From assembly GCA_004431415.1 (NCBI GenBank), contig QPMI01000568.1, forward strand, positions 52,183 to 116,182: a stretch of DNA of 64,000 nt. Direction: 5' to 3'. Each line of letters opens with the position of its first letter. Positions within the stretch are counted from its first letter, which is position 1. The translations under genes were made by a program, and so were the position numbers. Of this stretch, positions 13,801 through 60,824 are shown in pieces. This stretch comes from Cyanophora paradoxa CCMP329 (lineage: Eukaryota > Plantae > Glaucophyta). The notes below the pieces were generated by a model. That model did no database searches, was not told where the DNA came from, and saw only the letters and a program-made list of their open reading frames with translations.

Positions 13801-16800
13801 CTATGCTACCATCTTCCCTGTTGCTATATAAGTCATTTGATAGTGGAAAAGTCCAATGCTTTCATTGTATTCTCTATTTGCCGAAATTGTTGCATAAATA
13901 GTAAATGTTGTTGTTGTGGAACTTGTGACACCATATACCAATACATATGAACCACCATTATACCCATCTCTTAAATTGAGAACGACTGCTGGGGCTTCTG
14001 CAAACGCTTTTGGGAATGTGACAACTTGTGGAAATCCCCAATGACCCGGACCTGTGATTGTTAAAGATTTTGAAAAACTCCCTGTCTGTATATACTGGTC
14101 TTTATTGACCCGTTGTTCTGAGACAAGTTTCGCAATCTTACCATTGTCTTTTTCATCCATCGCATAGTATGCTCTTGCGTAAGCATTGCCACGACATAAT
14201 AGTGTTTTATCGTATATGTTCGCGGAATTGTGGAAGAACCACTGTTCGTAGAATAAAGGAGAGTCTGGTTGGTAAATTTGACCGGATCCCACATACATGG
14301 TATTATTTGCTGTGATCGTATTTGCTACAAATGGGTCTAAGGTTGGGAAATCTGTGATTTCCGATTTCGTGTGAGTATGGGCGAAATCTGTTATATTTGC
14401 CTTTGTGTGAGTATGTGCAAAATCGGTGATATCTGATTTAGTGTGAGAGTGAGGTCCGACAGTTGTGGAAGCTGTTGGTTTCCCGTAAATGTTATCCCAA
14501 TGCAAGAAGCCACTGTGTGATGATACAGCAGGATTTTTACTCCAACCAACAAGACCCACAAGGTAAATCCTTCCAATTCGCCCTTGAACACCAACTTTAC
14601 TCAGCCCTTCACAATTTACCCCGACATATTGCCTATACTCTACACTTGGGTCACTACCAGGAGAATAAGCATTTACTCTCGAAAGTGTATAAGAATTTGT
14701 TGATGGATAAACTCCCACAACATCAAAGTATCTACTATTGTATTGACACACATAGAAGATATAGCATGTCTTCATTCCCGCGGGGACAGTCCATAACATC
14801 TTGTAGCCACTACAATCTTCATCACCAGAAGCCCATGTGTTTGCTCCTGAGTAAGGAGATATGAATGTAAAAAATCTCCAATCACCTGTGCGGTCTGTGG
14901 AAATACCACTTGTAGCATCGAAATTTGTGGGTGCTGTATATGTTGGTTTATTAATTAAATCATCATAATTTCCGCTTGTCGCAACTGCTGCTAAGGTGGG
15001 TCTATCCGTAATATGGCTCCATAAATGTAGATGTGGTGAAGGTGTGAATGTTACAGGCTTATCTGTTATACTATTCCATGTGTGTGTGTGGTCAAAATCT
15101 GAAATCTCATCTTTTGTGTGAACGTGTGCAAAATCGGGTATCTCTAATCGGGAATGTGTGTGGGCAAAATCTGTTATTTGTGATTTTGTGTGAGTGTGTG
15201 TGGGTATCTCCAAATTGCTAAGTGTTAATCTGTCTTTGCCGATAATATTCAGAATTTCCCGAGTTAAGATTGGTTGAGTATTGGGGAATCCATACATTTG
15301 TTGGATGTAATACCTTACTTGTTGTTTTTCTGCTGTGGTTAATGCTCTGTTGAATACAATAATCTCAGCAATGCTTCCCGCAAATATTGTTCCAAATCCA
15401 AAATCGTTTATAGTGGAATCAGGTAAATAATTATTAATTCCTGTGAGAGTTCCCACATCGACACCATTTAGCCCCACTGTGTAGCTATCAGAAGTTATTG
15501 TTTGGTCTGAGTAATACCATTTATTTAGCAAAGAGGGAACTGTGACAGCAATTGGAGGTTGTGTTACACCATTTATAGCGAAAGTAGTTGTCCCTAATCT
15601 TGTTGAATTATTTGCTCCATAGTAGGCTAATCGCGTTGGTGATGTTGTTTTTAGCACACGCAAATGTGTATGAGAAGCACCTGTTTGTGTTAAATGATAT
15701 CTTCCAATATAGAAGAATGTCAAACCTTGTGACCAATCAATCGTTCTTGTCATCGTTGAGTTTGCTGAGTAGTTCCCTGAATCGCTTGTTAAAGTCATCT
15801 GATTATTTATAGCGATATTGGATGAGTAGTAGGGACTTCCTGTGGAACTGACAGTTATAGATGGAACGATTGAGGAGACCCTATTGTAAAGAATTGTTGA
15901 TGCTGCATTTTGACCATGAACCCCTGATGCTTTCCATGCAAAAATACAATTGGGAATATTAGAAGCTGGATCAAAATTGGAAGTGATTCGATAAAAATTT
16001 TCACTATAAGATTCTAAATAGCTTCCGGTTCCCATTTGAATTTTCCCTCCAACTGTTAGGTTGCTTGTCACAACCAAGTTGCTGGTGATGGTTCCACCTG
16101 TGAGAGGAAGATAATTAGATAATGCTACATTAAGTTCAGGTTCAGTCACATATACATCAAGTTCTGATTTTGTCACATAATCTTCAAGAACTGCTGCAAG
16201 TTCTGTATCGTCTACATAATTTTTGCTTTCAAGGTAATCATCTGTGACAACACCTGAAAGGGTCTCATTGTGTAAATTTTTTGCCGCCATTCTCTGATTG
16301 ACTTCTAAGGCGCCACCTGCTAATGTTTTGATCCACGCCATCTCACATTTCCCGAAATCATCTTTTGGTTGTCCCACAAGTGGTGCGTAATTGAATTTCG
16401 AGCGACTAAATATTATTTTCGGTCTTGATCCATCGGTTGCGCTTACATCTGTAACGTTTACTTGTAAGATGGCGTCTTTATCATCATAACTCACTGGATC
16501 TAATGGAAGTGGAGGTAAACCTGCTGTTAATGGGATATCTTCATTATAATAACTTGTCAAAAACAGACCTGGTTTAGTATCTATAACTCCCACCCCACCT
16601 GCTGAAACCATTTGAGATCTTGAAGGTTGTTTAATGTATAATTCGCCATCCATTGTGGTGCCTGCGTCTATTCCTTTTCGGTGCAAATAGTATTCACTTA
16701 ATTGTAATCTTTCAGGAATGGTGTCACTCTGATAGAAACTAACCCCATAAAATCCGTCACCATTTACTAAATCACCTGTTGATGCAAAACGTGGTTTTTC

Positions 16801-19800
16801 ATCTATTTCACTCCATGGGTGTTTGTGGTTAGAGTTTGTGATTTCGGAATAATCATGAGTGTGTGAATCTGGTGGAAAGGTTAACGGAGGATTTGTGATA
16901 TGCTCCCATAAATGAGTATGGGCGAAATCTGTGATCTGATCTTTGGTGTGAGTATGGGCAAAATCTGTGATCTGATCTTTGGTGTGAGTATGGGCAAAAT
17001 CTGTAATTTGATCTTTTGTGTGTGTGTGGGCGAAATCTGTGATCTGATCTTTGGTGTGAGTATGGGCGAAATCTGTGATCTGATCTTTGGTGTGAGTATG
17101 GGCAAAATCTGTGATCTGATCTTTGGTGTGAGTATGGGCAAAATCTGTAATTTGATCTTTTGTGTGTGTGTGGGCGAAATCTGTTATTTGATCTTTTGTG
17201 TGAGTATGGGCGAAATCTGTGATCTGATCTTTGGTGTGAGTATGGGCAAAATCTGTGATCTGATCTTTGGTGTGAGTATGGGCAAAATCTGTAATTTGAT
17301 CTTTTGTGTGTGTGTGGGCGAAATCTGTTATTTGATCTTTTGTGTGAGTATGGGCGAAATCTGTGATCTGATCTTTGGTGTGAGTATGGGCAAAATCTGT
17401 GATCTGATCTTTGGTGTGAGTATGGGCAAAATCTGTGATCTGATCTTTGGTGTGTGTGTGGTTTTGTATCCAACCTTGAACCACATTCGATGTTGGATGA
17501 TGAGGAAGATTAGCATTACTTGTTACAGTGAGATAATCGATCACTGTATCGGGTGATGTGATCTTTAAACCTCTGTAAATGGTCAGAGGTTGAGTATTGG
17601 GGAATCCATACATTTGTTGGATGTAATACCTTACTTGTTGTTTTTCTGCTGTGGTTAATGCTCTGTTGAATACAATAATCTCAGCAATGCTTCCCGCAAA
17701 TATTGTTCCAAATCCAAAATCGTTTATAGTGGAATCAGGTAAATAATTATTAATTCCTGTGAGAGTTCCCACATCGACACCATTTAGCCCCACTGTGTAG
17801 CTTGTAGAAGTTATTGTTTGGTCTGAGTAATACCATTTATTTACCAAAGAGGGAACTGTGACAGCAATTGGAGGTTGTGTTACACCATTTATAGCGAAAG
17901 TAGTTGTCCCTAATCTTGTTGAATTATTTGCTCCATAGTAGGCTAATCGCGTTGGTGATGTTGTTTTTAGCACACGCAAATGTGTATGAGAAGCACCTGT
18001 TTGTGTTAAATGATATCTTCCAATATAGAAGAATGTCAAACCTTGTGACCAATCAATCGTTCTTGTCATCGTTGAGTTTGCTGAGTAGTTCCCTGAATCG
18101 CTTGTTAAAGTCATCTGATTATTTATAGCAATATTGGATGAGTAGTAGGGACTTCCTGTGGAACTGACAGTTATAGATGGAACGATTGAGGAGACCCTAT
18201 TGTAAAGAATTGTTGATGCTGCATTTTGACCGTGAACCCCTGATGCCTTCCAAGCAAAAATACAATTGGGAATGTTAGAAGCGGGATCATTACTGGCTGT
18301 AATAGAATACCATTCTCTGTAAAGTTGGTTCATGGTATTAAAGTTGCCTGAGCCAATCGTTAGAATTCCATTCACTTTTAGGTTGCTGGTCTCTATGTTG
18401 CTACTGTAAATATTACTATTTACTGTAAGGTTTCCTGTGATTGTCCCACCAACAAGCGGGAGATATTTTGATAATTCCGCGGCAAGTTCAGGTTTTGTTA
18501 CATAATTTCCAAGCATCGCAAGAGTTACGAAATTAACGAGAATTACAGCCGTTAGGTAATCTTCCGTTACGATTCTTGAAATATCTTCATTGTGTATGTT
18601 TTTGGCGCTTGCTCTTTGATTGATTTCTAATAAACCTTCACCAACGCCACCGTTATATTTCGTTTTTATCCATGCTATCTCACATCTTTTGTAATCATCG
18701 CGATCTCCTATAAAAGTATTTGGTAAAAGACGCTGCCGACTAAATACTAATTTGGGTCTCGATTGGTCAAAGTCGCTAACATCTGTTACATTAATTTGTA
18801 TTGCTGCGTCTTTGTTATCGCAACTATTTGGATCTAATGGAAGTGACGGTAGCGGAGGTAATACATTTGTCATCTCGATATCCTCAGGATAGTAGCTTGT
18901 TAAATAAATTCCGGGTTTCGTCTCATACAAACCAAAATTACCACTAATTGGTAAAATGCCTTCTCTTCTGGGTGGTCTAATGTATAATTCAGCTTCCATT
19001 CCTGTGCCTGCTTCTATTCCCATGCGATTAAGGTAGTGGTCATTTAATTGTAATCTTTCTTCGATTTCTATGTTTCGGTAGAGACTTACGCCATGTTGAA
19101 AATCTGTTAATACATTTCCTGCGGATGCGAAAGTAGGTTGCTGGTCGATTTCGTCCCAATTATGCCTATGGTCTTCTGGCGGAAAGTCTGGTGGTATTCC
19201 ATCAATTTCGTCCCAATGGTGGCGATGCTCTGTCGGTGGAAATCTTTCCGGTTTGTTTAAAATGTCTTCCCATTCGTGATCGTGGGGATCTGGTGGGAAT
19301 GTTTCAGGTTTGTTAATAATATCCCTCCAATCTACTGTAAAATCGAAAAATCCCGGTTGTAATCCGTCTGGTAATAACTCTTCATCTGGTATATGTGGTT
19401 GTTCGTAATCTATGTTAGGTGGATTTAATCCATCTGGTAAAAGTTGTTCATCGAAAGGTTCGTAACGATCATATAACATATGGTTAGGATCAAATCCATC
19501 CGGCAATTCTTCCACGTCTTCACATTCTTTATGTTCGAGAGGGATTACATTAATATCTGGTGCTAAGAGTTCCTCAGCGGGCGGTTTGTAATCTTTAAAA
19601 ACTGGTTTATTATAAACTTTTTCCCAACTAACTAAATGTTGACCAAACGCAACCGTTTCATCAGCTGTGTATTCTCTTCCGGGTTGTTTTTTGGTGTAAG
19701 ATCTGGTGGATCCCATGGTAACGGAAATGGAACTGGAACAGGTCCGTAATGTTCAAATATTTCTCTTATCGTTTTCTCACTAACAAGTTTCTCGCCATTT

Positions 19801-20522
19801 GCATACACGTTGCTACCGTGAATATTTCGCCACTGTCGGGTTCTAATACCAAGATCTTTTGTGTTTGAAAACAAAGGTAGTAAATGTCGATCCATTTCGA
19901 CAAGATCGGGATGTAGATGAATCGCTACTGGTTGAGTGGGACTACTATTTATGGTTATTGATGGTTTTTTTTCATGAACGTCTTTCGGAGTAAAGAATCC
20001 AAAAGGTTCATTTTTCGCAAAATCATAAGTAATGTCTTTTGGGTATACATTATTTGTGATACATACTTGATTCGCATTAGGAAAACTACCTACTTGTAAG
20101 ATTTGTGATGACTCGACGATTGGTGTGCTACCTTCATTATAAATTCTTAGACCTGTATTCTGTTTACCTTTCTCATCTTGAACATTAAACACTAATCGCC
20201 CACTATCGAAACGCGTCGGAATATCGGGATGGGTTTTACTTGTTTTAAGTTTTCGTTGTCTTCTTGTTGCTTTAATTTCGGCAACTTCATTTTTTTTAAC
20301 ATTACCCAAACTGAAAGCAATGCTAACATCTTCTTTATCGGGATCCGTTTGATTCAGTGATAAAGCATGAATTCTGGAATGCGTCTTACTGGGTTTATCG
20401 GCGCTCTGATCGATAGAAGCCGATCCTTTGATGGTGATATTATCGAAATTCACATGTTTAGGGTTTGTTTTACCACCACTTCCTGATATTGTTTGTAAAT
20501 TTGCTGGATAATTGAAACTCAT
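13801..20522 (-). CDS. Giant fibre/receptor-binding protein (about 2,240 aa, split by one frameshift near 19690 into ORFs 19632-20522 and 13801-19716)
   Basis: Phage-tail-fibre-like motifs (HxH repeats, YLPLxGGTITG, VATSGNYDDL), two LamG/ConA-like domains (FAGSIAEIIVFNRALT), and a C-terminal H-type-lectin-like VTFPKAF..AP.V motif. The element C orthologue reads through this junction (PDLTPKKQPGREY). Confidence 0.8.
16921..17460 (-). repeat. 15 x 36-bp coding tandem repeat (HTHTKDQITDFA)
   Basis: Units start every 36 bp from 16921 to 17425. All variants are synonymous. Confidence 0.95.
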
Positions 20523-20571
20523 CCCTGGTTACTCTACATATAGAGATTTATTAAATTCCGATAAAGTAAAG

Positions 20572-22130
20572 ATGCCTCAGAAGATTGTTTTATCGTTGTC
20601 TGGTGGAGGTGCGCGTGGTATTATCATAACAAGGTTACTAACAGAAATTGAAAATAGAACTCGAAGACGTATAATAAATCTTGTCGATCTTGTAAGCGGA
20701 ACATCCACAGGTGGTATAATTGCGATTGGGTTAAATATCAGACATCCTGAGATGCCCAATGAACCAAAACTAACAGCTAACGATTTGCATAATATTTATC
20801 TTACACAGTTACCGTTAATTTTTGCGAATCCGCGAAATATCATTGAAAATGCCCTTTTCAATACAAAATACGATGCTACACCACTGGAAAGTGCGATTTA
20901 TTCAGTAACTGGTGAATCACTCATAAGAGATTCTCTAAAAGACATTGTGATTACATCTTTTGATACTCAATATATGAAACCAATATTTATAACAAACGAT
21001 AACAAATACAATTTTTTGCCGAATAAAATAGTAGCGCGTGCTACATCTGCTGCTCCAACATACTTTTCTCCTGTTAGCATTGTAGATTTCAATAATGGCG
21101 TAATTGCTTCTCTGATTGATGGCGCAATTTCAGGAAACAATAACCCAAGTGTATGCGGTTATAGTCATGCAAAAAAGATTTATAATGAAGATGACGAAAT
21201 TATAGTTATAAGTATATCTTGTGGTGAGGTTGATGCAAATTTAGAATCTGAATATTTCGGATATGCTTATGAGACTGTGAATAGCTGGGGTATTCTTTCA
21301 TGGATTGCTTCAACAGAAGGAAGCCCATTAATTAATATGCTAATGGCTGCAAGCGAACTATCCGCTCTTGATAAAATGGAAGAATTACTACCTCCAAATC
21401 TTGACCAAGGATATAATAGATATTTCCGTCTTTCTGTTCCGCTTCCAAATGATATAGTTCGATCACTTGATGATACATCTAAGATACCTGAAATGCTCGC
21501 ATTCACTGAAACGTATATTGCTGCAAATGACGCTATGATAAATAGACTCTGTGATTTACTTGTAACAAATTATGAGATTAATAACCCTGTCAGATCGTAT
21601 ATATCTTCCACTCTTAATAACATACCTCCCATTGACGCTAATTGGTATCTTCTGTCAGATAATGCGTTTTCTGCTTCGTCTGCGAAATTCGGAAAAGAGG
21701 CATTTAAAGCCCGCCCATCATTAACAGGATGGGAAGCGAACGCATCCGCCATAAACGGAGTATGGGAAACGCCAACTGAATATTTGCAAATTGCTTTTCC
21801 ATATACATATGAAATCGCTTCTATAATTGCTTATGGTTCAGGTATAACAACTGCGTTTATTAAAACTTTCAATGTTGCGACATCGCAAGATGGTTTAACA
21901 TGGTCCTTCATCAAATCTGATGGTGTAAATAGAATCTTTGTATGTGAAAATATAAATAATGCTAATAACTCTGGGATGTATCATATGCTACGGGTTTCCC
22001 GCTTATAATTAACGATGTATTTAATATACGTTATTCTTTGAGAATTCAATATATTCGTATTTATCCATTAGTATATATAAATGCTCCAACTATGAGAGTC
22101 GATGTGTCGGGTTCATTTATTAGAAATTAG
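20572..22130 (+). CDS. Patatin-like phospholipase with C-terminal F5/8 type C (discoidin) domain; frameshift near 21975
   Basis: GGGARG, GTSTG, SAAPTYF and DGA motifs; discoidin motifs (EYLQI, YIRIYP, MRVDV). The element C copy (50804-52345) is intact. Confidence 0.88.
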
Positions 22131-23425
22131 AGCTTTTCAGTTCCATTTATTGTAAGTTTTTTTAATTCTCTTGTTACTTTGTTTTTTTTCTTTAATCTTG
22201 CTTGTAAAAGCGGTTCTTCTGGGACATCATCCGCTTTTTCGATGCCTTCCTTACGAATCGCCGAATCAACCCGGGCTTCTTCTTTCGCTTGTTCAAGTGC
22301 ATCCACTGTGGGCGCTTCGTGATACTCAACACCTTTGATAGGTAACAGTTCGTGGAAAGCGAATCTCCCTTCGACCATTTCGCCATTTGGATTTCGCAAC
22401 CTGAACTTGAAACCCTCTCTCCCTTCGACAGTATAGACGATTCGCGACCAATTGACACCCTGTTTAGCGAATGGGTTCTTTTCTATTCTCACTCTCACAA
22501 ACATACCCTGTTTCACGCCATCTAAGTAAGCAATTGATTTCTTGAACCTCTCATCTTCTAAACCAATAATCTCTCTATAATGCTCTTCCGTTGTTTCTGC
22601 TGGTTTTCTCTTAGTTGCCGAGTGGATGGTATTGTTATAGTTATACTCTATGTCTCCCAATACATCGAAGAATCGCGCTGTGTTGTTTGCTATGCAATAG
22701 TTCGTGATCAATCGTTTGATCTGCTTGTTAAACGCTTCGATTCTACCTTGGCTTCGATGATCTGCGACATCGCTTATCTGATGGTCTATGAACTTCTTAG
22801 CAAGGTAATTCGTGAACATCGTATTTGTGAACTCGCTTCCGCTGTCACTCTGAATGCGAGCGATAGGTCGCGGAACTCTTCGTTGTAACTGCTCAAACGC
22901 CGCAAGCGCCGTAAGAGCGCTCTTATCTCTCATCGGAATGATGTAACCGGTGCGTAAAGTCGATTCCATCGCGGACATGAACGTATCGTAACCGTCGTTT
23001 TGGTTCTTGTATGCCGGGAAAAAGAGCAGATCGATTACGTAGGTATCGAGAGGTTGCCGAATCGGAATCATTGGGTCTCTCTTTCTTGAAAGGGTCGGTG
23101 CGTTTATCTGAACAACTTCCTGTTTATCATACCATTCTCTCATCTTCTTGTAGTCTTCCTCTGGTAGTTCCTTTCTCATTGCCCCGAAACCCTTGTAACC
23201 TGTGCGCGGATCGTAAAACTTCTTCGCGATCTTCGATTCTTTCGTTACAGTCTCAGTAGGCAATGCCTCCGGGATCAGTTCTTTAACCATCTCAGACTTC
23301 TTCAAGATTCGTGTGTTCTTCTCTTCGACCGGAATAGTGATCGGTAGCATGTTCCCTTGGTCTTCTTTCATGCTCTTCTTTACAATTTTAGGGACGGGTC
23401 GCAATCCTATCTGTGCTGAGGGCAT
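22127..23425 (-). CDS. Retroviral-type (rve) DDE integrase
   Basis: YVIDL, IQSDSGSEF, GRIEAFNKQIK, YNNTIHSATK. The 6-bp TSD fits this enzyme class. Confidence 0.92.
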   Translation of the reverse strand: MPSAQIGLRPVPKIVKKSMKEDQGNMLPITIPVEEKNTRILKKSEMVKELIPEALPTETVTKESKIAKKFYDPRTGYKGFGAMRKELPEEDYKKMREWYDKQEVVQINAPTLSRKRDPMIPIRQPLDTYVIDLLFFPAYKNQNDGYDTFMSAMESTLRTGYIIPMRDKSALTALAAFEQLQRRVPRPIARIQSDSGSEFTNTMFTNYLAKKFIDHQISDVADHRSQGRIEAFNKQIKRLITNYCIANNTARFFDVLGDIEYNYNNTIHSATKRKPAETTEEHYREIIGLEDERFKKSIAYLDGVKQGMFVRVRIEKNPFAKQGVNWSRIVYTVEGREGFKFRLRNPNGEMVEGRFAFHELLPIKGVEYHEAPTVDALEQAKEEARVDSAIRKEGIEKADDVPEEPLLQARLKKKNKVTRELKKLTINGTEKL

Positions 23426-23452: not shown

Positions 23453-23614
23453 ATGGACGAGCCGGTTTGGACAGAACACCCAAAACCAAACTACTTTGCG
23501 ATCGATCCAAACGACCCCGGTTTAAGGTGCATATGGTTGCTGCATCTGATCCGTGGTTTACTGCTACTTGGAGATCGAAAAAATAAAAAGAGAAGTATTG
23601 AGCAAGTATATTAA
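23453..23614 (+). CDS. Unannotated 53-aa micro-protein between integrase and pPolB
   Basis: MDEPVWTEHPKPNYFAIDPNDPGLRCIWLLHLIRGLLLLGDRKNKKRSIEQVY*. Conserved with identical length at 54237-54398. Confidence 0.75.
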   Translation: MDEPVWTEHPKPNYFAIDPNDPGLRCIWLLHLIRGLLLLGDRKNKKRSIEQVY

Positions 23615-26600
23615 AGACCAAATGGAATGCTGTGAATGCCGTCGGCTGATATCTTCCGTTTGCTATCGAGTTGGTTTAGAGCGACCCTTCTGCTCTCCAA
23701 GTCATATAAGTTGTGGTCTTGCCTTCGCTTGTTTGTTACTGATACTGTTTTTATGATGCCTTCGAACAGACATCTCTTAAAATCATCAAAATGAACCTCT
23801 TTCGAGGAAGTCCCCGACATCTTTACTCTTTCGTTGGTCTCAGTTCTGAAAGCATAGAGTTTCGATCTCAGACCCACATACTCCATGATCTTTGCATTTG
23901 GGAACTCATTTTTATATTTACCTGGAACCATGCGGTTTTTGATACTCACGAGAGGATGGGATTTATCGTAATTGCTCCTATCGAGATACTCACCTATCTC
24001 TTTCATATCTTCGTTCAGATTATTGGTTTTCAGGAAAAGACAGAACGAATCGGTATCGTGGAACAGTAGTTTAGCTGTTTCCCACTTCCTCCTTACCACA
24101 TCGTAGAAGAACCGATAATTATGCAGCTTCGCGAAATCCAAAACGAAAGCGCCAATTGCTACGGGTTTATCTAAGTTAACATGCTTCGAATACATCTCAA
24201 AGGCAACTGCGTTTTCGTTTAATACATTGGTCGCCTTGATAAGCGGACTTGCTGCGTATTTCTTACAGAGTTTCTCACTGTTAGCGATCTTGACAGTTGA
24301 GCGACCCCTGCAAGATTCCAAACATTTACCGTAAATTGCATTGTTCATGAGTTTAAAGAAGTCGCTTTCGAAATGGTTAGTAGATTCATGCCTGAGAAGA
24401 GTATTCAGACCAATGTAAGACTTCATGAATGGGGAAGTAGCGAATGAGAGAACTTTATGTATCTTTTTTAGAACGACACCCTTTTCAATGATGTAATTAA
24501 GAAGAGGTCGAGCAATCACGTATTTATTCTTGGGCGTAAATGTCGCTGTAAGTTTGGGGTCTTTGCTGATCTTTTCGCCCGTCAGATCTAATAGTTTACG
24601 TTGATAATCACCAAGCATTTCAGCGGTAATCACTTCTTTATTCACAATCAGTGGAAATCGTAATGATCTTCAAAAGTTGTGGGGTATTCAAGATCTACTT
24701 CAATAAATGCGCTTCGTCCCTCTACCTCTTTAAGTGCCTCTGTGATGTCTTCCCATCGATAATCTCCGATTGGTAGTGGTTGACTGAGAGCATAACCATA
24801 AAGATTATTTGCATCCAACAGAACTATATGATCGTTGGGGTTCTCTACCTTTGCGTATCGTGTGGGCATGGTAGCAAATCCACCGCGAATGGCTCTCTCA
24901 ACAAATTCGTATTTCTCTACATCATCGATTAGTTCAATCTTAACTTTCGTATGTTTTAGCATAGCATCCCAAGAGAGACCCGGTGCGCTAACATAATGTG
25001 CGGGATCCAATCCGTATTGAGAAAACGCCAATTTGCGAAATGCTTCAAACTTTCTCATTAAATCGCCTACATCCACAGATTGGAAATCCATAAAATGGGA
25101 AGCATCTATGAACTTCCACATGCCCCATTGAAGCGATAGGTATTGATCGAAATTCTTGCTCAGAATCTCAACACGTAGTTTATCATCTTGTTGGGCAATT
25201 TTGCGGAATATTCCGTGTCCGCATTCATCCATGTGATCGACCACGATAGCTACTTTGGTTTGCTTTGAGATTCGCCGGTGGAGGTTACAGTTTCGGCATG
25301 CCTTTCCGATGAAATCGCCGGATTGGTGGCAATGATCGCGAACCGGGAAGTTTTCGTGGGTGAATCTCTGAGAGCAAATGTAACAGTGTTTTGTTACCTT
25401 GTATTCCGCCTTCTGATCGTCTGTGAGTGGATGCATCGGAATGTTTCTAAACAGCGTCTCAACGATTTCGGGTCTAATATCTTGTAGAGTAGCAAAGAGA
25501 GAACCAAGCGGATCGGCTCCCTCGAAATGGTATGCTCTCACTTCATCTCCCATTACCACTCTCAATGAAACCGCTTTGATCTCACGTTTACTCCTCTGAG
25601 CATCAATAGCGACCGAATGATCTTCGACTTTAACGTAACAGATCACAGGGAGCCACACAGTTTTACGCAAGTGTTGCAGACCGAATTCAATTACGCTTCC
25701 CGCTTTTGGGCATTTGCCTTTGCTCTCCCTCCAATCAATGCAGCGATTCGCTTCAACATGCATGTCTAATTTCTCCTGAGTTCTGAAACGCGACAAGCAG
25801 GTTTCACAGTAGTAAATGCGACCATCACATGCTTTATCAAACGTAGTTTTCAGAAGACGACTAAAAGACATGATAGTAATGTAGTGTCCCCGATCATCTT
25901 CGGTGTTTTCGATAAGTAAAAGATTAATCTTGGTCTTTCTTCTTGGGTTACTTGATTGATGGAGAGGATAGAAACACTCTTTGGCGTTATCGGCTCCGTA
26001 AATGTTAATAGAGAGTTCGGGGTTTAGTTCTTCGAAACGATCGATTACCTCAGCATCACATGCAACGGGAAACTGAATACCATCGAAATTGAGTTCATTT
26101 AACCAACGGCGGTATTGGCTTGGTTCGTTACTCTTGTGTTTGTTAATGTCCTTTCGATGCAGGTAAGCCAAAATCGCATACTTGAAGCAATCTTGACCGT
26201 CGATATTCTTAACGTTCACCGTTGCCTTCTTGGATGCAATCCATTCGGGAGTTGCGAAATAGCATCCTCCCACAGGTGCATAAGACATGATAATGCCTCT
26301 AAGTATTTCGATCTTCTCCAAACGGTAACTATCCACTTGCGTCATTTCCTCTTGCATTTTCTGTAACGCTTTGCGAACTTCTGTGTCTATGTTGCGGGAT
26401 CGGGTAATTACGAAATAATCGCTGTAAATGAATTTGGTGATATAGATGCGCGGATTACCTACTTTGGTGAACTTGCAAACGAAAGTCAGACGGACTTTAA
26501 CGGCTCTCAGTTGCTCTAAGCGGGTTCTAATGCGTTGCGGTAGACTTGGTGCGATTCTTTCGAGGAATTCGATAGCATCCACGACAACTTCATTTCGGGC

Positions 26601-26891
26601 GCGATAGGTCAACCACGAATACGCTTGATTCATCGCTTGTCCATCTTCGATATCCGGTTCAATTGCTCCTAATCTCTGTCCTTCACCCATAAATTCCTCC
26701 ATTCGTTGCATGCGATCGTAGAGGTCATTTGCAATCTCAGTGAGTTGACCTAATCGCGGTCGTCTATCTAAGATGGCGGCTTCTCTATCGTATTCCGCTT
26801 CGGTGATCTCACCTGTAACTAAGAGAGTTCCTAACAATCCAAGTATTTCATTTTTCTTTTCTTTGATCAGTCTGTTCGTTTGGCGGGGCAT
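23611..26891 (-). CDS. Protein-primed family B DNA polymerase (vOTU-like and endonuclease-VII-like domains; degenerate exonuclease); one frameshift near 24655
   Basis: NIDGQDCFKYA...GHYITI, VRDHCHQSG...CRNCN, YGLDPAHY.SAPGLSWDAMLK, IRGG, DANNLYG, KLMNNAIYGK, HDTDS, GLRSKLY. Confidence 0.92.
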
Positions 26892-26933
26892 CTTTGCTAT
26901 AAAGGAACATTTTTATTTTGGATTTTGAACGCA

Positions 26934-27092: not shown

Positions 27093-27151
27093 TTTCAACT
27101 GAGACACACGTTCAATTTTTAAATCACCAGTCAATTTTTTATTTTTTATTC

Positions 27152-27244
27152 GGTGTAACGGGTGTAACAGGTAAATCCCAAAGTTTTCGGATTTTCACCT
27201 CCCTAGGAGCAAACTTTGGGATTTACCTGTTACACCTGTTACAC
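27152..27244. promoter_or_regulatory. Internal copy of the TIR iteron palindrome; putative replication origin downstream of the helicase gene
   Basis: Near-identical to 11029-11121 and 37498-37590. Confidence 0.7.
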
Positions 27245-27311
27245 TTACTGTTTTCAGTAAGGTTATAAAAAAAGTATGAATTATCAGTAAGAATAGTATG
27301 TTTTGTTGTAA

Positions 27312-29649
27312 TTAGTTGGGAGCCTCTACGTCGTCGTCGTCGTCCTGAATCATAATCTTTTTTTTCAGTCCGAAGTAACCACGCTTCACCTGACCTCTTT
27401 CTCGAACAGTTTCAGACTTCACATTAAAGACTTCGCGGACTCGCTTTCCAATACTCGTGGCATCGGTTTTATCATCAACATAACGATAGCCAGCAATGAT
27501 AGATTCACTCGAAATGAAATCATTTCGGCTTCCGGTCTTCTCATAAGTGCTGCGGAGCCATTCCCCGATTTTATCGTTATCATTAAAGTATTCAAGTCCC
27601 TGATCGATGATAGACTGTGGCGGATTCATCAGCAGCTGTGCAAGATCCTGTTTCTTCCACATGTCCAAGAAGATCGACATTTGAGCCATCTTGTATTCGT
27701 CGTCATTCATGATGGACATAAGCGAAGTATCCGCTTTCTTCTCACCAGGTTGAGGGTTGGGCTTGAAGACACAAGAGAAACGATAGTAAGAGAGTCGCCG
27801 GTAAATCGCAGCATCGGGTTTACTCATCCCAGGTTCTCATTCGTCGATAAGAAGATTTGACCCATAGGAATGTAGGTAACAGGATCTTTGAACAGGGCGC
27901 GAACCTTCATCTCGTTACCACCTGTAATCTCTTTGATCTTGCTAATTTGAAGCTTGTCGCCATCTTCCGCTTCATTTGAAAAGATAATGCGACGACCCAG
28001 AATATCGGCAAGTTCAGGTGTAGCGTCTGATGCATTCTTTTTCGGTTTCGTCCAATATGACATATTGATTGTTCCGAAATACTGTCCGAATGTTTGCTTG
28101 ACCATCTCCTGAACGAGAGATTTACCATTGGCTCCAATTCCAGTCCAGAAATTGAACTTTTGAATATCTGTGCGACCACTCAGAGAGAAAGCGATCGAAC
28201 CCATCACGAAATTGCGCTCAATTTCCTCTTCGATGATGTCAGAGTAGATGGAAAGGATCTTGGCGACTTTCACAGAATCCACCTCGGGGCAATAATCATA
28301 ACCAACAGTCTTACTGATCATGTCTTCTGGGAGTCCCCTTCGGAAAGTCATAGAATTCAGATCAAACACGCCATTTGTGAATCCAATCACATTGGTAACA
28401 GTATCAAGTCTCTCGAAGAATGTCTTATCGTTCATCAGAACTGTGAGATCAGACAGAAGAGAAGTTCGGTAATTAGTCTGTTTGAGTTTCTTTGCGATAC
28501 CAAGAAGAACCTGTGATCTCTCCTCCAAAGACGCACGATTCTCTTCATCACGAAGCGCTCTCTGAGCGAATTGCACAGCACGTTGAAGATAAGCCGGGCA
28601 AACCCTGCAACTCAAACACAGATAGATTCGTTTCCCGGTCTCATCCATCTCCCAGATTCCGTAAGCCTCGTTGAACTTGAACCACGTCTTGTTTGAATAC
28701 TTGTAGCTGTCTCGCAGAACAAGAAAAGCAACCTGGGCAACATCATAATGTCCGCCATCAGATCCAATCGACCGATCAATTAGCTTTTCAATCTGAACAT
28801 CGGTATCAGCTTGAACGCGAACCGTCATAACTCGCTTCTTGCAATTGGTGCTATAACTCGAAACAATATACTTGTCTTTCTCGTTCCTTGAAGTATATAC
28901 CAATTGTTGGAGTCATGGCTTCCCTTGCAGCAGGGACAAATCAGACCTTTGTTCTCAGCAGTGAAACTGTAACCCTTCTCGGTCTCATTAATGATTGTGG
29001 GTAAGATGAAACCAAATTCTTCAAGTTTCCGGAGAATGTGTTTCTGCAAATCCTCTTCAATGCTCCTATCAATAGAAGAGTGTCCGCCTTTCGGAAAAAG
29101 GTAGTTGTCAATCATCCACTTTTGGAGTTCAGCACTCGGTTCGATCAACTCACAGCCTTCCGCCCATGGTTCTCTGATCCAAGTTTTACCGGGGCTTGGG
29201 GAAACGTTGATCAACCCAGCAGTTCCAGTGGACGCAATTGTCTTACAGTCGATCTTAGGATAACCTTTGAAAGCACCCGCTTTATCCCAGATCTTCACAG
29301 CATCGAAGTCAGAAGGACGAGAGAAGTAAACATGATATCCTTTTTTGGTTTTAGCAAGAGGATTGACACCACCGAAATCATCGGGGAATTGCTCCTCGAA
29401 TTTGGTGAAATCCTCCTCTTGGTCGAAGTCGATAACCACGATATTGCGAGCGAGAATGCCCCAAGCAACATACTTACCGGATTTCAGGGCTTCATCGAAT
29501 TTATCCCAAGTCCACGATCCGTCTTTATGGGCGAAAAGGGGTTTTTTGGTATCGGGATCAACGGGTATTACGATATTCTCAGACAGGACATCGTCTTCAC
29601 GAAGCCAATCAACAAGGCGTTTCAGGGATTTCTTGGCGGCAGCGTTCAT
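27312..29649 (-). CDS. Bifunctional primase-polymerase (PrimPol) fused to D5-like SF3 helicase with C-terminal winged helix; two frameshifts (near 28890 and 27830)
   Basis: WGILARNIVVIDFD...KTKKGYHVYF; CPCC...H; IGFTNGVFDL; WTGIGANGKS; FSNEAE; IKEITGG; C-terminal RGYFGLK. Confidence 0.88.
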
Positions 29650-29855
29650 TTCGATAATCGGGGGTGTCTTATCTATGATGGAGAAAAGAGTTTCTCCGGA
29701 TTCCTGTCATTTTTTGGCGGCTAACCTTTAAGTGGTTGATATCTCTTCAATTACCAAAAACGGCAATCGGGAGATGGTTACGGATCTATCGAAGCATATC
29801 GATAGACCGCTCGAAAAATGAGTAATTGGGTTCAGCGGTCAAATGGGGATTTCCC

Positions 29856-33249: not shown

Positions 33250-34650
33250 TCATAGATTGATTCGCCTGACGCCATCGCGGTCAATTATGAGGAACGAATG
33301 CATGAGAGCGCGAACGTTAACAGTAATTGTGCGATCAGCAGGAAGATATAGAGTGAGGAATGATGAAGACGAGTTCGTAAGGTCAACATATCCAGATTGG
33401 GCAATGTTGCGAATCGCCTTCTCACCATCAACACAGAATGGGAATCCAGTAAGGACGTAACGGTTTGCTTCCTTGTCCATATTCGAGCATTTGAAGGCAT
33501 CGGCGATGAGTTCCGCACCTTTGAGTAGCGGGATCGGCTCCGTCGAATAAAGACGCTGTCCGTTGATCTCACAAGTCATCGTGATATCCTTCGCATTCGC
33601 AAGCGTTTTAAGGACGCTGTGAGAACCATTCGAGGTATCGACACCATCAGCATCACGAACAGAGACAAGAAGAGCATAAACCAGACCAGAGATTTGGCTA
33701 AGATTGATTCGGTTGGGTTGAGTGTTACCTTTCGCAGCAACACCAATAGCATCGACGAAACCGATATCGAGAGCAGGAATAGCCATCCCCGTGGTCTTAA
33801 CCTTCTCAATAACAGTTGCAAACAGTTCATCTGAAACGTTGATAGCATGCATGTAGAGACGAGGAGACTTAATGGAGATGTAATGGGTCATTGGTGGAAC
33901 AGTTCCAGCAACTTCGAACCCAGTAATACCGCCAGTGGTGATGTTTTGACCAACATTAGCAAGTGTAACGCTCGTAGCATTTCCAAGTCCATCATCTGAT
34001 GATTTATCCGCAGCAGTGGATCCAACAACCGGAAGAGAGCGACCACCATAAGAAGTTTCAAGGTAACCCTTGTTAGTTTCCTTAAACCACACAGTGATAA
34101 CGGCTTCGCCCGAGAGAGCGCCAAGTGGTAGGTAGTGGTTCAACCACGGCACCGGGATTTCAACAAAGAAAGCACCACCTTTACGGTTGGTTCCGTGAGC
34201 GGGAATACCATGAAGCATTCCCATTGAACGCTTCTTTTTCGCCAGTTGATCCTCGCTGTAATAAACCAGTGGGAAAATCGCAAGAAAATCGCTTGGGACG
34301 TGGTAGGTGTAAGAACCATACGAGAATTCAAGACGCTCTACAAGCGCACCAACGGGACGGGTGTAACCATTTCGCACAAGGTCGTCATCACCAGTAAAAG
34401 CGGTTAGTTCGGGAAGATCAAAAGCGAGTTCGATTTTACCAACAAAGTTGTAGCGGGGAAGTTTGAAAGAAACGCGTTGACCAACGTTGTTGTCATAGGT
34501 TGTCGAGGGACTAACGGTTACCAGAACGGGTTTCGTCTTCGATTCGAGACCAAGCATAAGCGAGTTATCGAGGAAGAACGCTTTGGCTTCCTCGGGCGTT
34601 GTTAGCGCCTCTTTCAGAGAAAGACGTTGAAGGGTCGAGGTAACATCCAT
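33250..34650 (-). CDS. Major capsid protein (double jelly-roll, NCLDV-like N-terminal motifs)
   Basis: 466 aa, beta-rich, next to the ATPase and minor capsid genes. GQRVSFKLPR...IELAFDLPEL...GALVERLEFSYG...VEIPVPW...LPLGAL pattern. Confidence 0.8.
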   Translation of the reverse strand: MDVTSTLQRLSLKEALTTPEEAKAFFLDNSLMLGLESKTKPVLVTVSPSTTYDNNVGQRVSFKLPRYNFVGKIELAFDLPELTAFTGDDDLVRNGYTRPVGALVERLEFSYGSYTYHVPSDFLAIFPLVYYSEDQLAKKKRSMGMLHGIPAHGTNRKGGAFFVEIPVPWLNHYLPLGALSGEAVITVWFKETNKGYLETSYGGRSLPVVGSTAADKSSDDGLGNATSVTLANVGQNITTGGITGFEVAGTVPPMTHYISIKSPRLYMHAINVSDELFATVIEKVKTTGMAIPALDIGFVDAIGVAAKGNTQPNRINLSQISGLVYALLVSVRDADGVDTSNGSHSVLKTLANAKDITMTCEINGQRLYSTEPIPLLKGAELIADAFKCSNMDKEANRYVLTGFPFCVDGEKAIRNIAQSGYVDLTNSSSSFLTLYLPADRTITVNVRALMHSFLIIDRDGVRRINL

Positions 34651-34704
34651 TCTGTTTTGCTTTTACTATACAAAAATATAAAAATTCTGTGAATGATCCT
34701 TAAT

Positions 34705-35709
34705 TTACGCGAATCCCGCAATATTTGGATAGAAGGGGTGGGTCTCTCTCATTCTCATTTTGAAATACTCATAAATTGGATCACCGGCGGGTTCATCACC
34801 ATAACGGATTTCGAATGTCAGATGCACAGGTTGACCTTCGAAATCAATTAATTCATTTTGAGCATTCACTACATCTACCGAGAGTTGTGATAGTGACATC
34901 TTCTTATTATAGTATTTATACAGCGGATTTGCTTCCGTCGAATTGTAAACAACGTGTTCCGCAAAGTCTTTATCTTGAACCGTGAGTTTATGGAAGTATC
35001 CAGTAAGGAGACCATCGGCACATTGGACGAGGTCACCCAGTTCTTTTACTCTCACAAAAAAGACGTTATCTTTGCAGGTTTCAGTGGGGAATGTTGAGAT
35101 AATACCGTTTACATTTGCACCTGTAAAAACGGAGCTTGTATCTGTTCCATAGGTCTGTGATTTAATAAACTTGTTTCCCCAGCGTCCAGCATCCAAACCC
35201 AAGATTCGAGCATGTCGTAGCGCTTTTTCGATTGCGGAAACAGAAGGATCTTTTGCATATGAGAAGCAAATATAGAACTCCATAGGAGCATAAAAGATTA
35301 CTTTTTTTTGGGTTACATCCCAACCACAGCGAATTGCAGAAGGAGGCGAGAGATTCTCAAAACGGTTATTGATTCGGGCAACGAGTTGCTGATGAGTATT
35401 GATTGGGGTTTTTAGACCTGCACCAGGTCTAATAGAACGCCAACTATCATATAGAATCTCAGGAGCATTTGCACCGGTGGATGTGGACTTTTGGCTGAAA
35501 TTGATAATAAAGGCATCCTCTATTGTTGCATCCCCAGGTTCTGTTTCACCACTAATGAGCGGGATGGAGTTATAGAATTCAGCGGAGACAAGGCGAACCG
35601 CTCTTACATTCTCATACGTCTTTGGGAGATCCGCAACAAACCGAGATGTTGGAGCATCCAGATTAGGTAGCGTTTTGAAGGAAGACACTTCAACGTATTC
35701 CACAGGCAT
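34705..35709 (-). CDS. Minor capsid protein (penton) 1
   Basis: LPKTYENVRAVRLVSAEFYNS and C-terminal LSQLSVDVVN...LIDFEG..VHLTFEI. Confidence 0.8.
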   Translation of the reverse strand: MPVEYVEVSSFKTLPNLDAPTSRFVADLPKTYENVRAVRLVSAEFYNSIPLISGETEPGDATIEDAFIINFSQKSTSTGANAPEILYDSWRSIRPGAGLKTPINTHQQLVARINNRFENLSPPSAIRCGWDVTQKKVIFYAPMEFYICFSYAKDPSVSAIEKALRHARILGLDAGRWGNKFIKSQTYGTDTSSVFTGANVNGIISTFPTETCKDNVFFVRVKELGDLVQCADGLLTGYFHKLTVQDKDFAEHVVYNSTEANPLYKYYNKKMSLSQLSVDVVNAQNELIDFEGQPVHLTFEIRYGDEPAGDPIYEYFKMRMRETHPFYPNIAGFA

Positions 35710-35737
35710 CTTCTTTTATCTATAACCATATAATAAA

Positions 35738-36640
35738 ATGATTCGGCTTGTCAATGTCGATAGTAGAGATCGATTAGATGGACAAAACGAAAACGCTTAC
35801 AAGGTCTCACTTACCACACCAATAACCAGACCGCGACAGTGTCGTATCTTGTATGCAGAGATTCCCAACAGCATTTATAATTCGATTCGAACCGATTATA
35901 TTATGATTCGTTATAACATTGGTGGTTTCATCCTTAACCAGCAAGTATTTCCGTTACCGAGTGGTTATATCAACCAAGGACACTTTGGAGTTACTCAACC
36001 ATATAATTACGGTTTAAACTACGAAGTTCTTGAAAATACATTCTTTAAGATATACTACAACCCGACAACATACAAGTTAGAATTTTATAGCAGCGTTCCA
36101 TTTGAAATAGCAGCGTCAAACAATAGAATCGCCAAACTACTTGGTCTGAGTTCTGCATTATTGGTAAGCCAGCAACATAATTTAGAAGATAACAGGTCTG
36201 TATTTGCTCCTGAGAATTACTTATCCTATGCAGGAAGACCAATAACACCTGATCACCCACAATGGGGAATAACGTTTGATGGTGCAGATCCGGTGCCGTT
36301 GCAACATAAAGCAACAAGTCCAAAGATGGCGGATATGAACGCTGAGCAATACTTGTATATGCATATCAAAGAACTCTCTTCTTTTGCATCGAACCACAAT
36401 ATAGTCCCGAAATCGCAACCGCAGAATCAAGGCGCGATCTTGCGATTACAATTGAGTCAGGACATCGGGAAGTATGTTTACCATAGCGGAGAGCATGGTG
36501 AATACATAAAAATAACAGACAAAAACCTTGTTATTCGTGAATTAACAGTTGAATTTCGTGATTATTTTGGTGATCTTGTAGATATGAATGGTATCGATAA
36601 TTCGTTTCAGTTGGAGTTTGTAGCTATTGGATACGATTAA
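35738..36640 (+). CDS. Minor capsid protein (penton) 2
   Basis: VNVDSRDR...ILYAEIPNS and C-terminal IRELTVEFRDYFGDLVDMNGIDNSFQLEF. Confidence 0.82.
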   Translation: MIRLVNVDSRDRLDGQNENAYKVSLTTPITRPRQCRILYAEIPNSIYNSIRTDYIMIRYNIGGFILNQQVFPLPSGYINQGHFGVTQPYNYGLNYEVLENTFFKIYYNPTTYKLEFYSSVPFEIAASNNRIAKLLGLSSALLVSQQHNLEDNRSVFAPENYLSYAGRPITPDHPQWGITFDGADPVPLQHKATSPKMADMNAEQYLYMHIKELSSFASNHNIVPKSQPQNQGAILRLQLSQDIGKYVYHSGEHGEYIKITDKNLVIRELTVEFRDYFGDLVDMNGIDNSFQLEFVAIGYD

Positions 36641-46559: not shown

Positions 46560-47540
46560 TTAAGCCAACGCTGTTATGAGGTATCCTTTCATTTGCATAC
46601 TTGTTCCTAAATAGCCCCCGTTACTGTTAGCAAGTCTTCTGAAATCAACAAAATCAGTTGTAGAGTTAAGCTGAAGAATAAATAATCCAGTCAAATAGGC
46701 TTTTTCGTTTGCAACAGTTCTTTCATAGTTTACATAGTATCCAGTGGTTGATTTGTTCACATCATTTACATGTAGCGAAATAGCTGTTTGTCCAGTTCCT
46801 GTATCATTTGTATGTGCTGACCACGAAAATACATATATCCCTTTAACAGGAGCAGTAAACCGCCCTGTGGTGGCACTAAAACAATTTCCTTGATTTAGTT
46901 CAACAACGAGACTATCTCCATTATTTGTTGAAATAATTCCAGTTCTTGTAATGTAGGCAGCTGTCGAATCTCTCACACAAAATGCAGCAAAGTTTGATGG
47001 ATATAAGTATCCTGTATTTATTGAAAGTCCGGTGTCTTTCACAGTAGCAATAGTAGCTCCATTTCGTTTAATCAACACATCAGACGCAGCCCCACTATCA
47101 ATAGTGGTCGTTTTAACTGTCCCAAAAGATCCAGCGGTAAGGGATCCAATTGTCGCACTTGTTGCTGTAATTGCTCCATTCACACTCAGTCCAGTCCCAA
47201 TCCATGCCCCGCCACTGTAAACTTGAAAAGCCGCCGAATTCCTATCAGCCGGATTAAAAGCCGTTTTGGAATCCTGTTGACCTTCATATAGATTTTCTTT
47301 GGTGACCAGCCCCGAAGAGATTGCGGGTCGATTAGATACGATCATTTGAGTAGCTTTAACGAGTCCATCAATCTTGTCGGCTCTGAGTTCTTTGACTCTG
47401 AGTATGCTTTGTTCATTAAAAGAATCGGTTTTGGCTGTTTCAGTTGAAGGGTGGCTTGGAGATAAATCATAAACAGTGTGTTGGACATTGTGGACAGCAC
47501 TTGCACTCAAAGAAAACACAGGCGTGAATACAGTTGTCAT
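46560..47540 (-). CDS. C1q-like domain protein with the shared N-terminal anchor domain, element C-specific
   Basis: ILRVKELRADKIDGLVK N-terminus; C-terminal NQGNCFSATTGRFTAPVKGIYVFSW C1q signature. Confidence 0.75.
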   Translation of the reverse strand: MTTVFTPVFSLSASAVHNVQHTVYDLSPSHPSTETAKTDSFNEQSILRVKELRADKIDGLVKATQMIVSNRPAISSGLVTKENLYEGQQDSKTAFNPADRNSAAFQVYSGGAWIGTGLSVNGAITATSATIGSLTAGSFGTVKTTTIDSGAASDVLIKRNGATIATVKDTGLSINTGYLYPSNFAAFCVRDSTAAYITRTGIISTNNGDSLVVELNQGNCFSATTGRFTAPVKGIYVFSWSAHTNDTGTGQTAISLHVNDVNKSTTGYYVNYERTVANEKAYLTGLFILQLNSTTDFVDFRRLANSNGGYLGTSMQMKGYLITALA

Positions 47541-47560
47541 CTTTAAATTGCTCTTTATAA

Positions 47561-50754: not shown

Positions 50755-50803
50755 CCCTGTTTACTCTACTTATAGAGATTTATTAAATTTGAGTTAAGTA
50801 AAG

Positions 50804-54236: not shown

Positions 54237-54398
54237 ATGCAAGAGTCTGTGTGGAAGGAGAACACAATTCCAAACTACTTTGCAATTGAGCCCAATGATC
54301 CAGGATTAAGATGTATATGGCTGCTGCATTTAATTCGCGGTTTATTACTTCTTGGAGAGCGAAACCAAAGAAAAAGAAAGATTGATGAAGTAGATTAG
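54237..54398 (+). CDS. 53-aa micro-protein
   Basis: MQESVWKENTIPNYFAIEPNDPGLRCIWLLHLIRGLLLLGERNQRKRKIDEVD*. Confidence 0.75.
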   Translation: MQESVWKENTIPNYFAIEPNDPGLRCIWLLHLIRGLLLLGERNQRKRKIDEVD

Positions 54399-57300: not shown

Positions 57301-57671
57301 TTTCTGTCTGAGTCTCTGAGGTAGAGTGGGTGCAATTCTCTCCAAGAATTCAATCCCATCTTGGATAACCTCCCCTCTTGCTCGATAGGTTAACCAAGAG
57401 TATGCTTTGTTCATTGCTTCCCCATCTTCAATCTCGGGTTCAATTGTTCCAACCTTAAACCTTCATCCCTGAATTCCTCCATCTTCTCAAAACGATCATA
57501 GAGGCGATTAGTAATTTCTGTGAGTTGAGATAATCTTGGTCTCCTATCCAGGATTGCTGCCTGGCGATCATATTCGAATTCTGTAATATCACCAGTAACT
57601 AAAAGGGTTCCTAAAAGACCGAGTATTTCGTTTTTCTTTTCTTTGATGATTCTATTTGATTGGCGGGGCAT
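54395..57671 (-). CDS. pPolB of element C (several frameshifts)
   Basis: Four ORF pieces collinear with the element B polymerase. Confidence 0.9.
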
Positions 57672-57727
57672 CTTTTACTTTAAGGGAACATATTATTTTT
57701 GGGCGTTTTAAACGCATTTCGCATTTT

Positions 57728-60630: not shown

Positions 60631-60824
60631 TTCGAAAATCGGGGGCTTCTTACACTTAATGGAGAAATTAATTTCTCCGGATCCTTGTCATTTTTTGGCG
60701 GCTAACCTTTAAATACCTTTGGGTTTTCCGATTGGCGCTCGATACATGGTAATGATCCATCGAAAAGTCGATTGATCATGGTAACAAAAAGGATTCAGCG
60801 GATATCTGGGACTTTGGGGGCGGT

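Follow-up and report, generated by a model that had tools for sequence, protein, structure and literature searches.

The pPolB genes of two colinear elements, B and C, in a 64,000-nt window of the Cyanophora paradoxa CCMP329 genome (contig QPMI01000568.1, positions 52,183 to 116,182; coordinates below refer to this window) encode a polymerase whose exonuclease domain has lost catalytic residues and a block of about 94 amino acids, and they adjoin a primase-SF3 helicase gene. We consider it fairly probable that this pPolB is a non-proofreading, helicase-assisted replicative enzyme in which the exonuclease remnant persists as a folded scaffold, and that the SF3 helicase opens the duplex and thus permitted the erosion. 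The preliminary description of this DNA had recognized the loss of the proofreading site, which proved to be lineage-wide, and had overlooked the adjacent primase-SF3 helicase gene, the conservation of the remnant and the precedent of mavirus.

Polintons/Mavericks are characterized by long terminal inverted repeats (TIRs), a 6-bp target-site duplication, an RVE integrase and a packaging ATPase. All these hallmarks are present in element B (28.75 kb, 9935-38684), with 1344-nt TIRs that are 100% identical, the duplication GACATT in its flanks and genes for an RVE integrase, an A32 ATPase, pPolB and a Prim-Pol/D5-SF3 helicase. Element C, extending from about 42300 past the window end, is colinear with B at 69-79% DNA identity. 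The pPolB gene of B (23611-26891, minus strand) encodes in order a TP, a vOTU, a Zn finger, an exonuclease remnant with an HNH insert, and palm, TPR1, fingers, TPR2 and thumb; it is split over two ORFs (24648-26912 and 23611-24669; Pfam DNA_pol_B_2, E 2.8e-4) and is colinear with the unbroken protein P0001 at about 46-48% identity. Directly upstream on the same strand lies the Prim-Pol (AEP)-D5/SF3 helicase gene (27312-29706), which occupies three frames in the window and matches Pfam Prim-Pol (E 1.4e-4), D5_N (E 5.7e-9) and DUF5906 (E 2.3e-8); PHROG 1156 matches both of its pieces, and its Walker A motif reads GIGANGKS. The RVE integrase is encoded at 22127-23425 (minus strand; Pfam rve, E 2.8e-4). 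The pPolB gene of C (54395-57718, minus strand) has the same exonuclease remnant, lies in three frames and shares 77% DNA identity with B over 4.8 kb, with a primase-SF3 helicase gene (58273-60712, minus strand) again upstream.

Several other features of the elements were observed. Between the helicase and pPolB genes of B, positions 27150-27245 hold an internal copy (93 nt, 94%) of the subterminal sequence with 21-bp repeats from the B TIR, possibly a promoter or an origin. Both elements carry a fusion of patatin-like phospholipase and F5/8 type C domains (20512-22008 and 50798-52345) and long fibre-like ORFs (13801-19752 in B, 1983 aa with 36-bp repeats; 46560-50359 in C, with a C1q domain). 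The stretch 33250-36640 contains a 470-aa candidate double jelly-roll capsid gene (33250-34662), which had no match in Pfam or PHROG or by BLAST to one stored capsid, and two convergent ORFs, also without Pfam or PHROG matches, which from their motifs we take to be penton-like. A PDB sequence search with the B polymerase returned a single irrelevant match, and a scan of a viral contig collection found no relative.

In the alignment, the Asp residues of ExoI and ExoII are absent from both B and C. ExoI of B reads CYVKVE, and in its YVKVE core (25623-25637, minus strand) a Lys (codon at 25629-25631) replaces the first catalytic Asp, the Glu being retained; VDHMDECG (25218-25241, minus strand) stands in place of ExoII, and from FxDS through FExFR only KFIDASHFMDFQSVDVGDLMRKFEAFR is left (25035-25115). 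At this deletion junction (25035-25112, minus strand) about 94-95 aa are gone, including KGxYPY (Kx2h) and the ExoIII Tyr. In C, ExoI is read directly as LCKMDSH in ORF 55707-56534, ExoII is VDHMDECG as in B, and the junction is KFIDASHFMDFQAVDSGDLMSKFQTFR. The ExoI readings first given for B and C (CYVKVE and CYVKMD) and the replacement of ExoII are present in the sequence. The four catalytic carboxylate columns of B hold Lys, Glu, no acid and Asp; as an Asp is retained at the ExoIII column, which with the ExoI Glu makes two of four acids, ExoIII is truncated and not wholly absent. The preliminary description, which had the block with KGxYPY and ExoIII reduced to a few residues, is borne out for KGxYPY and the span (19 residues vs. 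a median of 113) and refined for ExoIII. The ExoIII Tyr and Kx2h Lys, corresponding to phi29 Tyr165 and Lys143, lie within or border the deleted block. P0001 has none of the four acids left.

The other segments of the B domain are close to the medians of relatives (n=247): 98 vs. 111 residues from ExoI to HNH, 33 vs. 32 from HNH to ExoII and 44 vs. 45 from ExoII to FxD. Because the N-terminal two-thirds are of near-normal length, the domain was trimmed at one place and not lost, and about 195 aa remain from ExoI to FExF, HNH included. The HNH/endonuclease VII-like insert (25269-25445, minus strand) retains Asp-His...Asn and its Cys pairs (Pfam Endonuclease_7, E 9e-4 in C and 0.012 in B). Conserved ExoI-III motifs, by which a Polinton-type pPolB is recognized, are lacking in B, so its pPolB is a derived variant and not a typical member of this type.

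The polymerase genes of both elements are interrupted in the window, the reading frame shifting in B at about 24652, between motifs A and B, and in C at several points, as expected if the copies were artefacts or decaying pseudogenes, a reading to which we attach virtually no credence. In contigs from four public runs (representing no more than four studies, possibly including the source of the window, and with rare variants dropped, so that an intact allele is conceivable), single-letter indels relative to the window occur at the three breaks of B, one in the polymerase and two in the helicase; the contigs also differ around the polymerase breaks of C, one of these differences being seen in a single run. 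Given this disagreement, the breaks probably arose in assembly or are peculiar to these copies. The junction, on the other hand, is in-frame and identical in B, C and the unbroken P0001; run contigs cross it, one of them spanning the C junction gap-free, and the run-contig matches listed include neither a longer allele nor an insertion or joint at this point. Decay is further opposed by the perfect TIRs with their target-site duplication and by purifying selection on the B/C polymerase, and since ten unbroken metagenome proteins have the same kind of short block, neither assembly error nor decay accounts for it. As a cause of the deletion itself, artefact or decay is refuted by the junction, selection and run-contig evidence; the original claim that the loss is no assembly error or recent decay is borne out by the identical in-frame junction, the ten proteins and the purifying selection.

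Among 119 relatives from the first protein search, the ExoI Glu and ExoIII Asp are invariant (119/119 each), the ExoI Asp and ExoII Asp occur in 118/119 each and the KGxYPY Lys in 117; the span from FxD to F(EN) is 19 residues in B and P0001 compared with a median of 113, the lowest value among the relatives, 61, belonging to a partial record. P0001 (1083 aa, unbroken) alone among the 120 matches has the deletion. Relatives pooled from four protein searches make up 378 rows, 372 of which span the exonuclease region: in 345, DEDD is accompanied by a span of at least 80, and 11 combine a short span (17-47) with a broken tetrad, namely B and ten unbroken metagenome proteins (P0001, P0130, P0359, P0164 and P0361-P0366). 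One insect gene model, P0316, is short (span 45) with DEDD kept and was excluded from the short-span group; the remaining 15 are truncated records or show single changes. Because short-span proteins had been used as seeds for the searches, the proportion of 11 in 372 does not reflect a frequency in nature. The erosion is graded, with 47, 44, 37, 34, 31, 19 and 17 residues left of about 113.

The predicted model of the B remnant (268 aa, pLDDT 94.5) matches best the phi29 exonuclease region 5-215 (Z 10.4, rmsd 3.0, 156 aligned), and the full-length model of P0001 (pLDDT 88.2, pTM 0.84) matches best phi29 polymerase (Foldseek E 1e-16; Z 18.5, rmsd 3.2, 473 aligned); intact relatives make up most of the alignments behind both, a possible source of bias in the models. 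The B remnant is predicted to keep the five-stranded exonuclease-type (RNase H-like) sheet, with the ExoIII-column Asp219 immediately preceding a modelled helix at 220-238. The phi29 exonuclease site requires Asp12, Glu14, Asp66, Asp169, Tyr165 and Lys143, as described in the available text of PMC4974454. With model residue 26 at phi29 residue 5, the Lys of B would fall at Asp12, and with residue 420 of P0001 at residue 5, its Gln427 and Lys429 would fall at Asp12 and Glu14, in each case if the strand is ungapped. The HNH insert (model residues 95-153) matches Hpy99I (Z 6.3).

Editing might instead proceed by another route, through a metal site rebuilt from the leftover acids of B (Glu35, Asp164, Asp167, Glu168 and Asp219 in P0360 numbering) or through mismatch or branch cutting by HNH. 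Several acids do lie near ExoII in B and C, no other segments of the polymerase are as conserved as the remnant and HNH, and HNH Asp-His...Asn is kept in 11/11 short-span proteins. HNH is equally kept in the exonuclease-intact relatives (His 118/119, Asn 117/119), so its retention is not special; the position of the first metal ligand is occupied by Lys; and P0001, P0164 and the group of L008, a metagenome locus described below, are without those acids, which makes such a route highly improbable. The alternative DEDD site that the preliminary description had named as a refuting observation appears, judged by alignment, to be absent: no catalytic-column acid is common to all short-span proteins, P0366 retaining an ExoII-like Asp. 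With the Tyr, the Lys and two of the carboxylates gone, editing should be abolished in B and C, and a folded, non-editing remnant remains our preferred reading.

Selection was estimated between B and C piecewise by the Nei-Gojobori method, with dS saturated in 5/11 segments. The ExoII-ExoIII remnant has dN 0.037 (95% 0.006-0.077) and dS 1.10 over 70 codons, the polymerase core dN 0.118 (0.088-0.153) and dS 1.13 over 344 codons; dN is 0.056 in HNH, 0.071 in vOTU (91% identical), 0.229 from ExoI to HNH and 0.165 in a helicase piece. Within the polymerase, the remnant and the HNH insert are thus the most conserved segments, and constraint is weakest in the ExoI segment. The equal dS of remnant and core argues against recent gene conversion, and the place of the remnant among the most conserved parts makes it a likely scaffold.

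Polymerase motifs A, B and C and the TPR1/TPR2 spacing are maintained, motif C having both Asp (DTDS), and the intervals in C are 154 residues between motifs A and B, 99 between B and C and 63 from C to KxY (canonical medians 160, 101 and 63, n=207). At the N-terminus, residues ~90-216 of the P0001 model resemble the little-finger/PAD domain of the Y family (Z 9.8, rmsd 2.5, 105 aligned), a similarity also reported for Polinton TP domains in the accessible part of PMC11161782; from this model, 46% identical to B, we predict the terminal-protein region of B at 26271-26891 (minus strand). The vOTU-like protease domain follows (25860-26270, minus strand), with Cys (QDCFKY) and His (GHYITI) in aligned columns. 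Alignment, spacing and Pfam all agree with the earlier statement that the polymerase motifs, the vOTU Cys/His and the endonuclease VII-like insert are kept.

It has been suggested that the enzyme might be reduced to terminal priming, which could mean that the AEP-SF3 primase-helicase is the main replicase and pPolB attaches just the initial nucleotides to the terminal protein. The primase part of B has DxD, His and Asp motifs, presumably the primase motifs, and the motif C-KxY segment is shortened to 46-47 residues (vs. 63) in P0001 and P0164. In other Polinton-like viruses, AEP-S3H substitutes for pPolB, according to the available parts of PMC11161782 and PMC12220804. Against this, palm, TPR2 and thumb are of normal length in C and in 5/7 other proteins measured, and dN/dS of the palm-TPR2-thumb region, ~0.10, shows it evolving no faster than the helicase (0.13). 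Conservation of TPR2 and thumb makes priming only less likely, and the retained motifs, TPR1/TPR2 spacing, TP and vOTU argue in the same direction. We therefore disfavour the suggestion and regard the replicase role of AEP-SF3 as improbable.

The helicase gene adjoins the short-span pPolB in all three cases with context (B, C and L008), which belong to two lineages, gene context being available for 1/10 short-span proteins other than B. L008 encodes a 900-aa D5_N protein adjoining pPolB, Sputnik-type major and minor capsid proteins and an RVE integrase, and its helicase is 28-31% identical to those of B and C. Such a gene lies upstream in 0/6 DEDD loci having at least 3 kb of upstream sequence (L007, L019, L024, L048, L051 and L068), these controls being partial and L048, L051 and L068 close kin. 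Among the best 80 of 125 metagenome loci, most of them short and the contig of P0164 not included, L008 is the only one with a short-span polymerase and the sole tblastn match of the B/C helicase (E 3e-24). An ORF scan, covering 104/120 non-polymerase ORFs of at least 200 aa in 19 loci of at least 7.5 kb and omitting frames that overlap the polymerase gene, found D5_N in L008 only and weak DUF5906 in L003 only. The link between exonuclease erosion and a primase-SF3 helicase is suggestive, given the small numbers.

Two side observations concern these loci. The virophage-type locus L008 (175-12311), with its HNH-bearing short-span pPolB, has the D5/SF3 helicase transcribed divergently, the N-terminus of which appears primase-like by eye without a Pfam match; at least 7 protein clusters are related to L008. 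In L003 (408-4192), the pPolB has an intact exonuclease and lacks the HNH insert.

If exonuclease loss were tolerated on its own, owing to a small genome or host repair, the helicase would be an unrelated passenger and pPolB would displace strands itself. The polymerase retains TPR2, its main wedge in strand displacement, so that a helicase is possibly unneeded for displacement, and SF3 helicases occur in some Polintons (available text of PMC3671162). Contexts are few, and L003, where an ORF of 244 aa next to a DEDD-intact polymerase matches the SF3 family weakly (E 3.6e-5) and Walker A was not found in it, is a possible counter-example. That the gene lies immediately upstream of pPolB in both of the short-span lineages for which context exists, and in 0/6 controls, nevertheless speaks against a passenger, as do the different sources of the helicases in the two lineages (28-31% identity) and the statement in the same part of PMC3671162 that pPolB with a primase-helicase is uncommon. 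On balance a passenger is unlikely, and we retain the reading of a helicase-assisted enzyme.

B and C nest within exonuclease-intact relatives. In a first tree (55 rows), a single origin of the short span was recovered in 26% of the bootstrap replicates (AU p 0.37), which left the question undecided. The second tree, based on the polymerase part only, comprised 54 rows from ~280 usable, P0362 (without the anchor motif), P0359 (a duplicate) and eight near-duplicates being removed. There, C and P0001 form a clade (100/100) grouped with four ExoII-intact relatives (95/87), and the L008 group, P0366 and P0164 form a separate one (96/96); this topology requires two losses, its starred branches force two origins, and a single origin occurred in 0% of bootstrap trees, the AU test not rejecting one clade (p 0.29). 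Two origins are favoured. Root-to-tip paths of short-span proteins are 1.30-1.86 (median 1.05), which fits low fidelity and is not counted as evidence. The loss is also independent of the palm-helicase fusion of element A, as the preliminary description had supposed, since A has no profile similarity to the pPolB family of B and C (hhalign probability 2.5) and these nest among intact relatives. The element A gene itself (2-2722) is a 5'-open ORF with palm-like motifs recognized by eye (AVDMCKCYP, IHTDCLY), an SF1 helicase and a C-terminal endonuclease VII/HNH, followed by an RVE integrase, and looks like a Tlr1-type pPolB-S1H.

We propose that the terminal protein primes synthesis at the element ends and is released by vOTU, and that pPolB would then elongate whole strands. 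The loss of two carboxylates, Tyr, Lys and ~94 aa would leave no 3'-5' exonuclease activity, which would lower fidelity, so that an error-prone pPolB is a reasonable inference from the motifs. The retained sheet may carry the HNH insert and pack on the polymerase. In phi29, the tunnel that strips the downstream duplex is built from the exonuclease domain, TPR2, palm and fingers (available text of PMC4974454), and the missing part would weaken both editing and a tunnel of this type. The SF3 helicase could take over duplex opening, and its presence may have allowed the exonuclease to erode, following the proposal in PMC11161782. More tentatively, the system could be a hybrid replisome midway to the replacement of pPolB by a primase-helicase, in which a TP-primed, non-proofreading pPolB copies the leading strand behind SF3 and AEP primes the displaced strand; a single Polinton polymerase family might have followed this route on two or more occasions, in integrated elements and in a virophage lineage, leaving the graded exonuclease erosion.

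To our knowledge, proofreading is present in nearly all family B replicases. The B/C lineage marks off the part of an exonuclease domain that is required structurally from the part that serves editing only, and intact close relatives, unbroken natural proteins and graded deletions make the trade-off testable comparatively and in vitro.

Exonuclease motifs are conserved in every taxon group, by taxon-level logos of 20,702 pPolB1 and 1,331 pPolB2 homologues in the accessible part of 10.1101/2023.08.22.554363. The offset of exonuclease loss by helicase gain was proposed from mavirus, whose pPolB has an exonuclease remnant only and which encodes S3H, and from Tlr1 with fused S1H, the two losses being independent (available text of PMC11161782). 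The exonuclease status of Polintons with S3H is unstated in the part of PMC3671162 at hand, and the available portions of PMC13215967, PMC12721341, PMC12220804 and PMC4889955 give background consistent with our findings. In the literature searched, with most subscription papers outside reach, we met no account of HNH-bearing Polinton pPolBs whose exonuclease is partly deleted. The principle is already described, and the B/C instance and the graded series appear undescribed in that literature; what is new is that exonuclease loss with a helicase recurs, perhaps twice, inside an otherwise exonuclease-intact Polinton family.

Like the HNH-bearing pPolBs of Polintons and adintoviruses, known from ants, molluscs, spiders, corals and the Drosophila-associated adintovirus 3 PolB, the B/C enzymes have the same domain order, HNH between ExoI and ExoII and the polymerase motifs, at ~30-35% identity; unlike B and C, those proteins have DEDD and the 113-aa block. 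With the Tlr1-like pPolB-S1H of Polinton-like viruses and transpovirons (available text of PMC11161782), B and C share exonuclease loss and helicase gain, and differ in that the loss is partial, the helicase is SF3 and not SF1, and no fusion exists: the thumb is the last domain in the polymerases of B, C and P0001, with no SF1 helicase fused to the palm. Mavirus-like virophages have a pPolB that is similar in its retained TP and vOTU, degraded exonuclease, separate SF3 helicase gene and RVE integrase, and lower fidelity is predicted there as well (accessible parts of PMC11161782 and PMC13215967). Unlike mavirus, in which most of the domain is lost (TP-vOTU-PALM), B and C keep two-thirds of it with the HNH insert, have both Asp in motif C, carry an AEP primase domain on the helicase and are nearest to exonuclease-intact Polinton pPolBs. 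They are probably an independent repeat of the trade-off of the mavirus and Tlr1 type.
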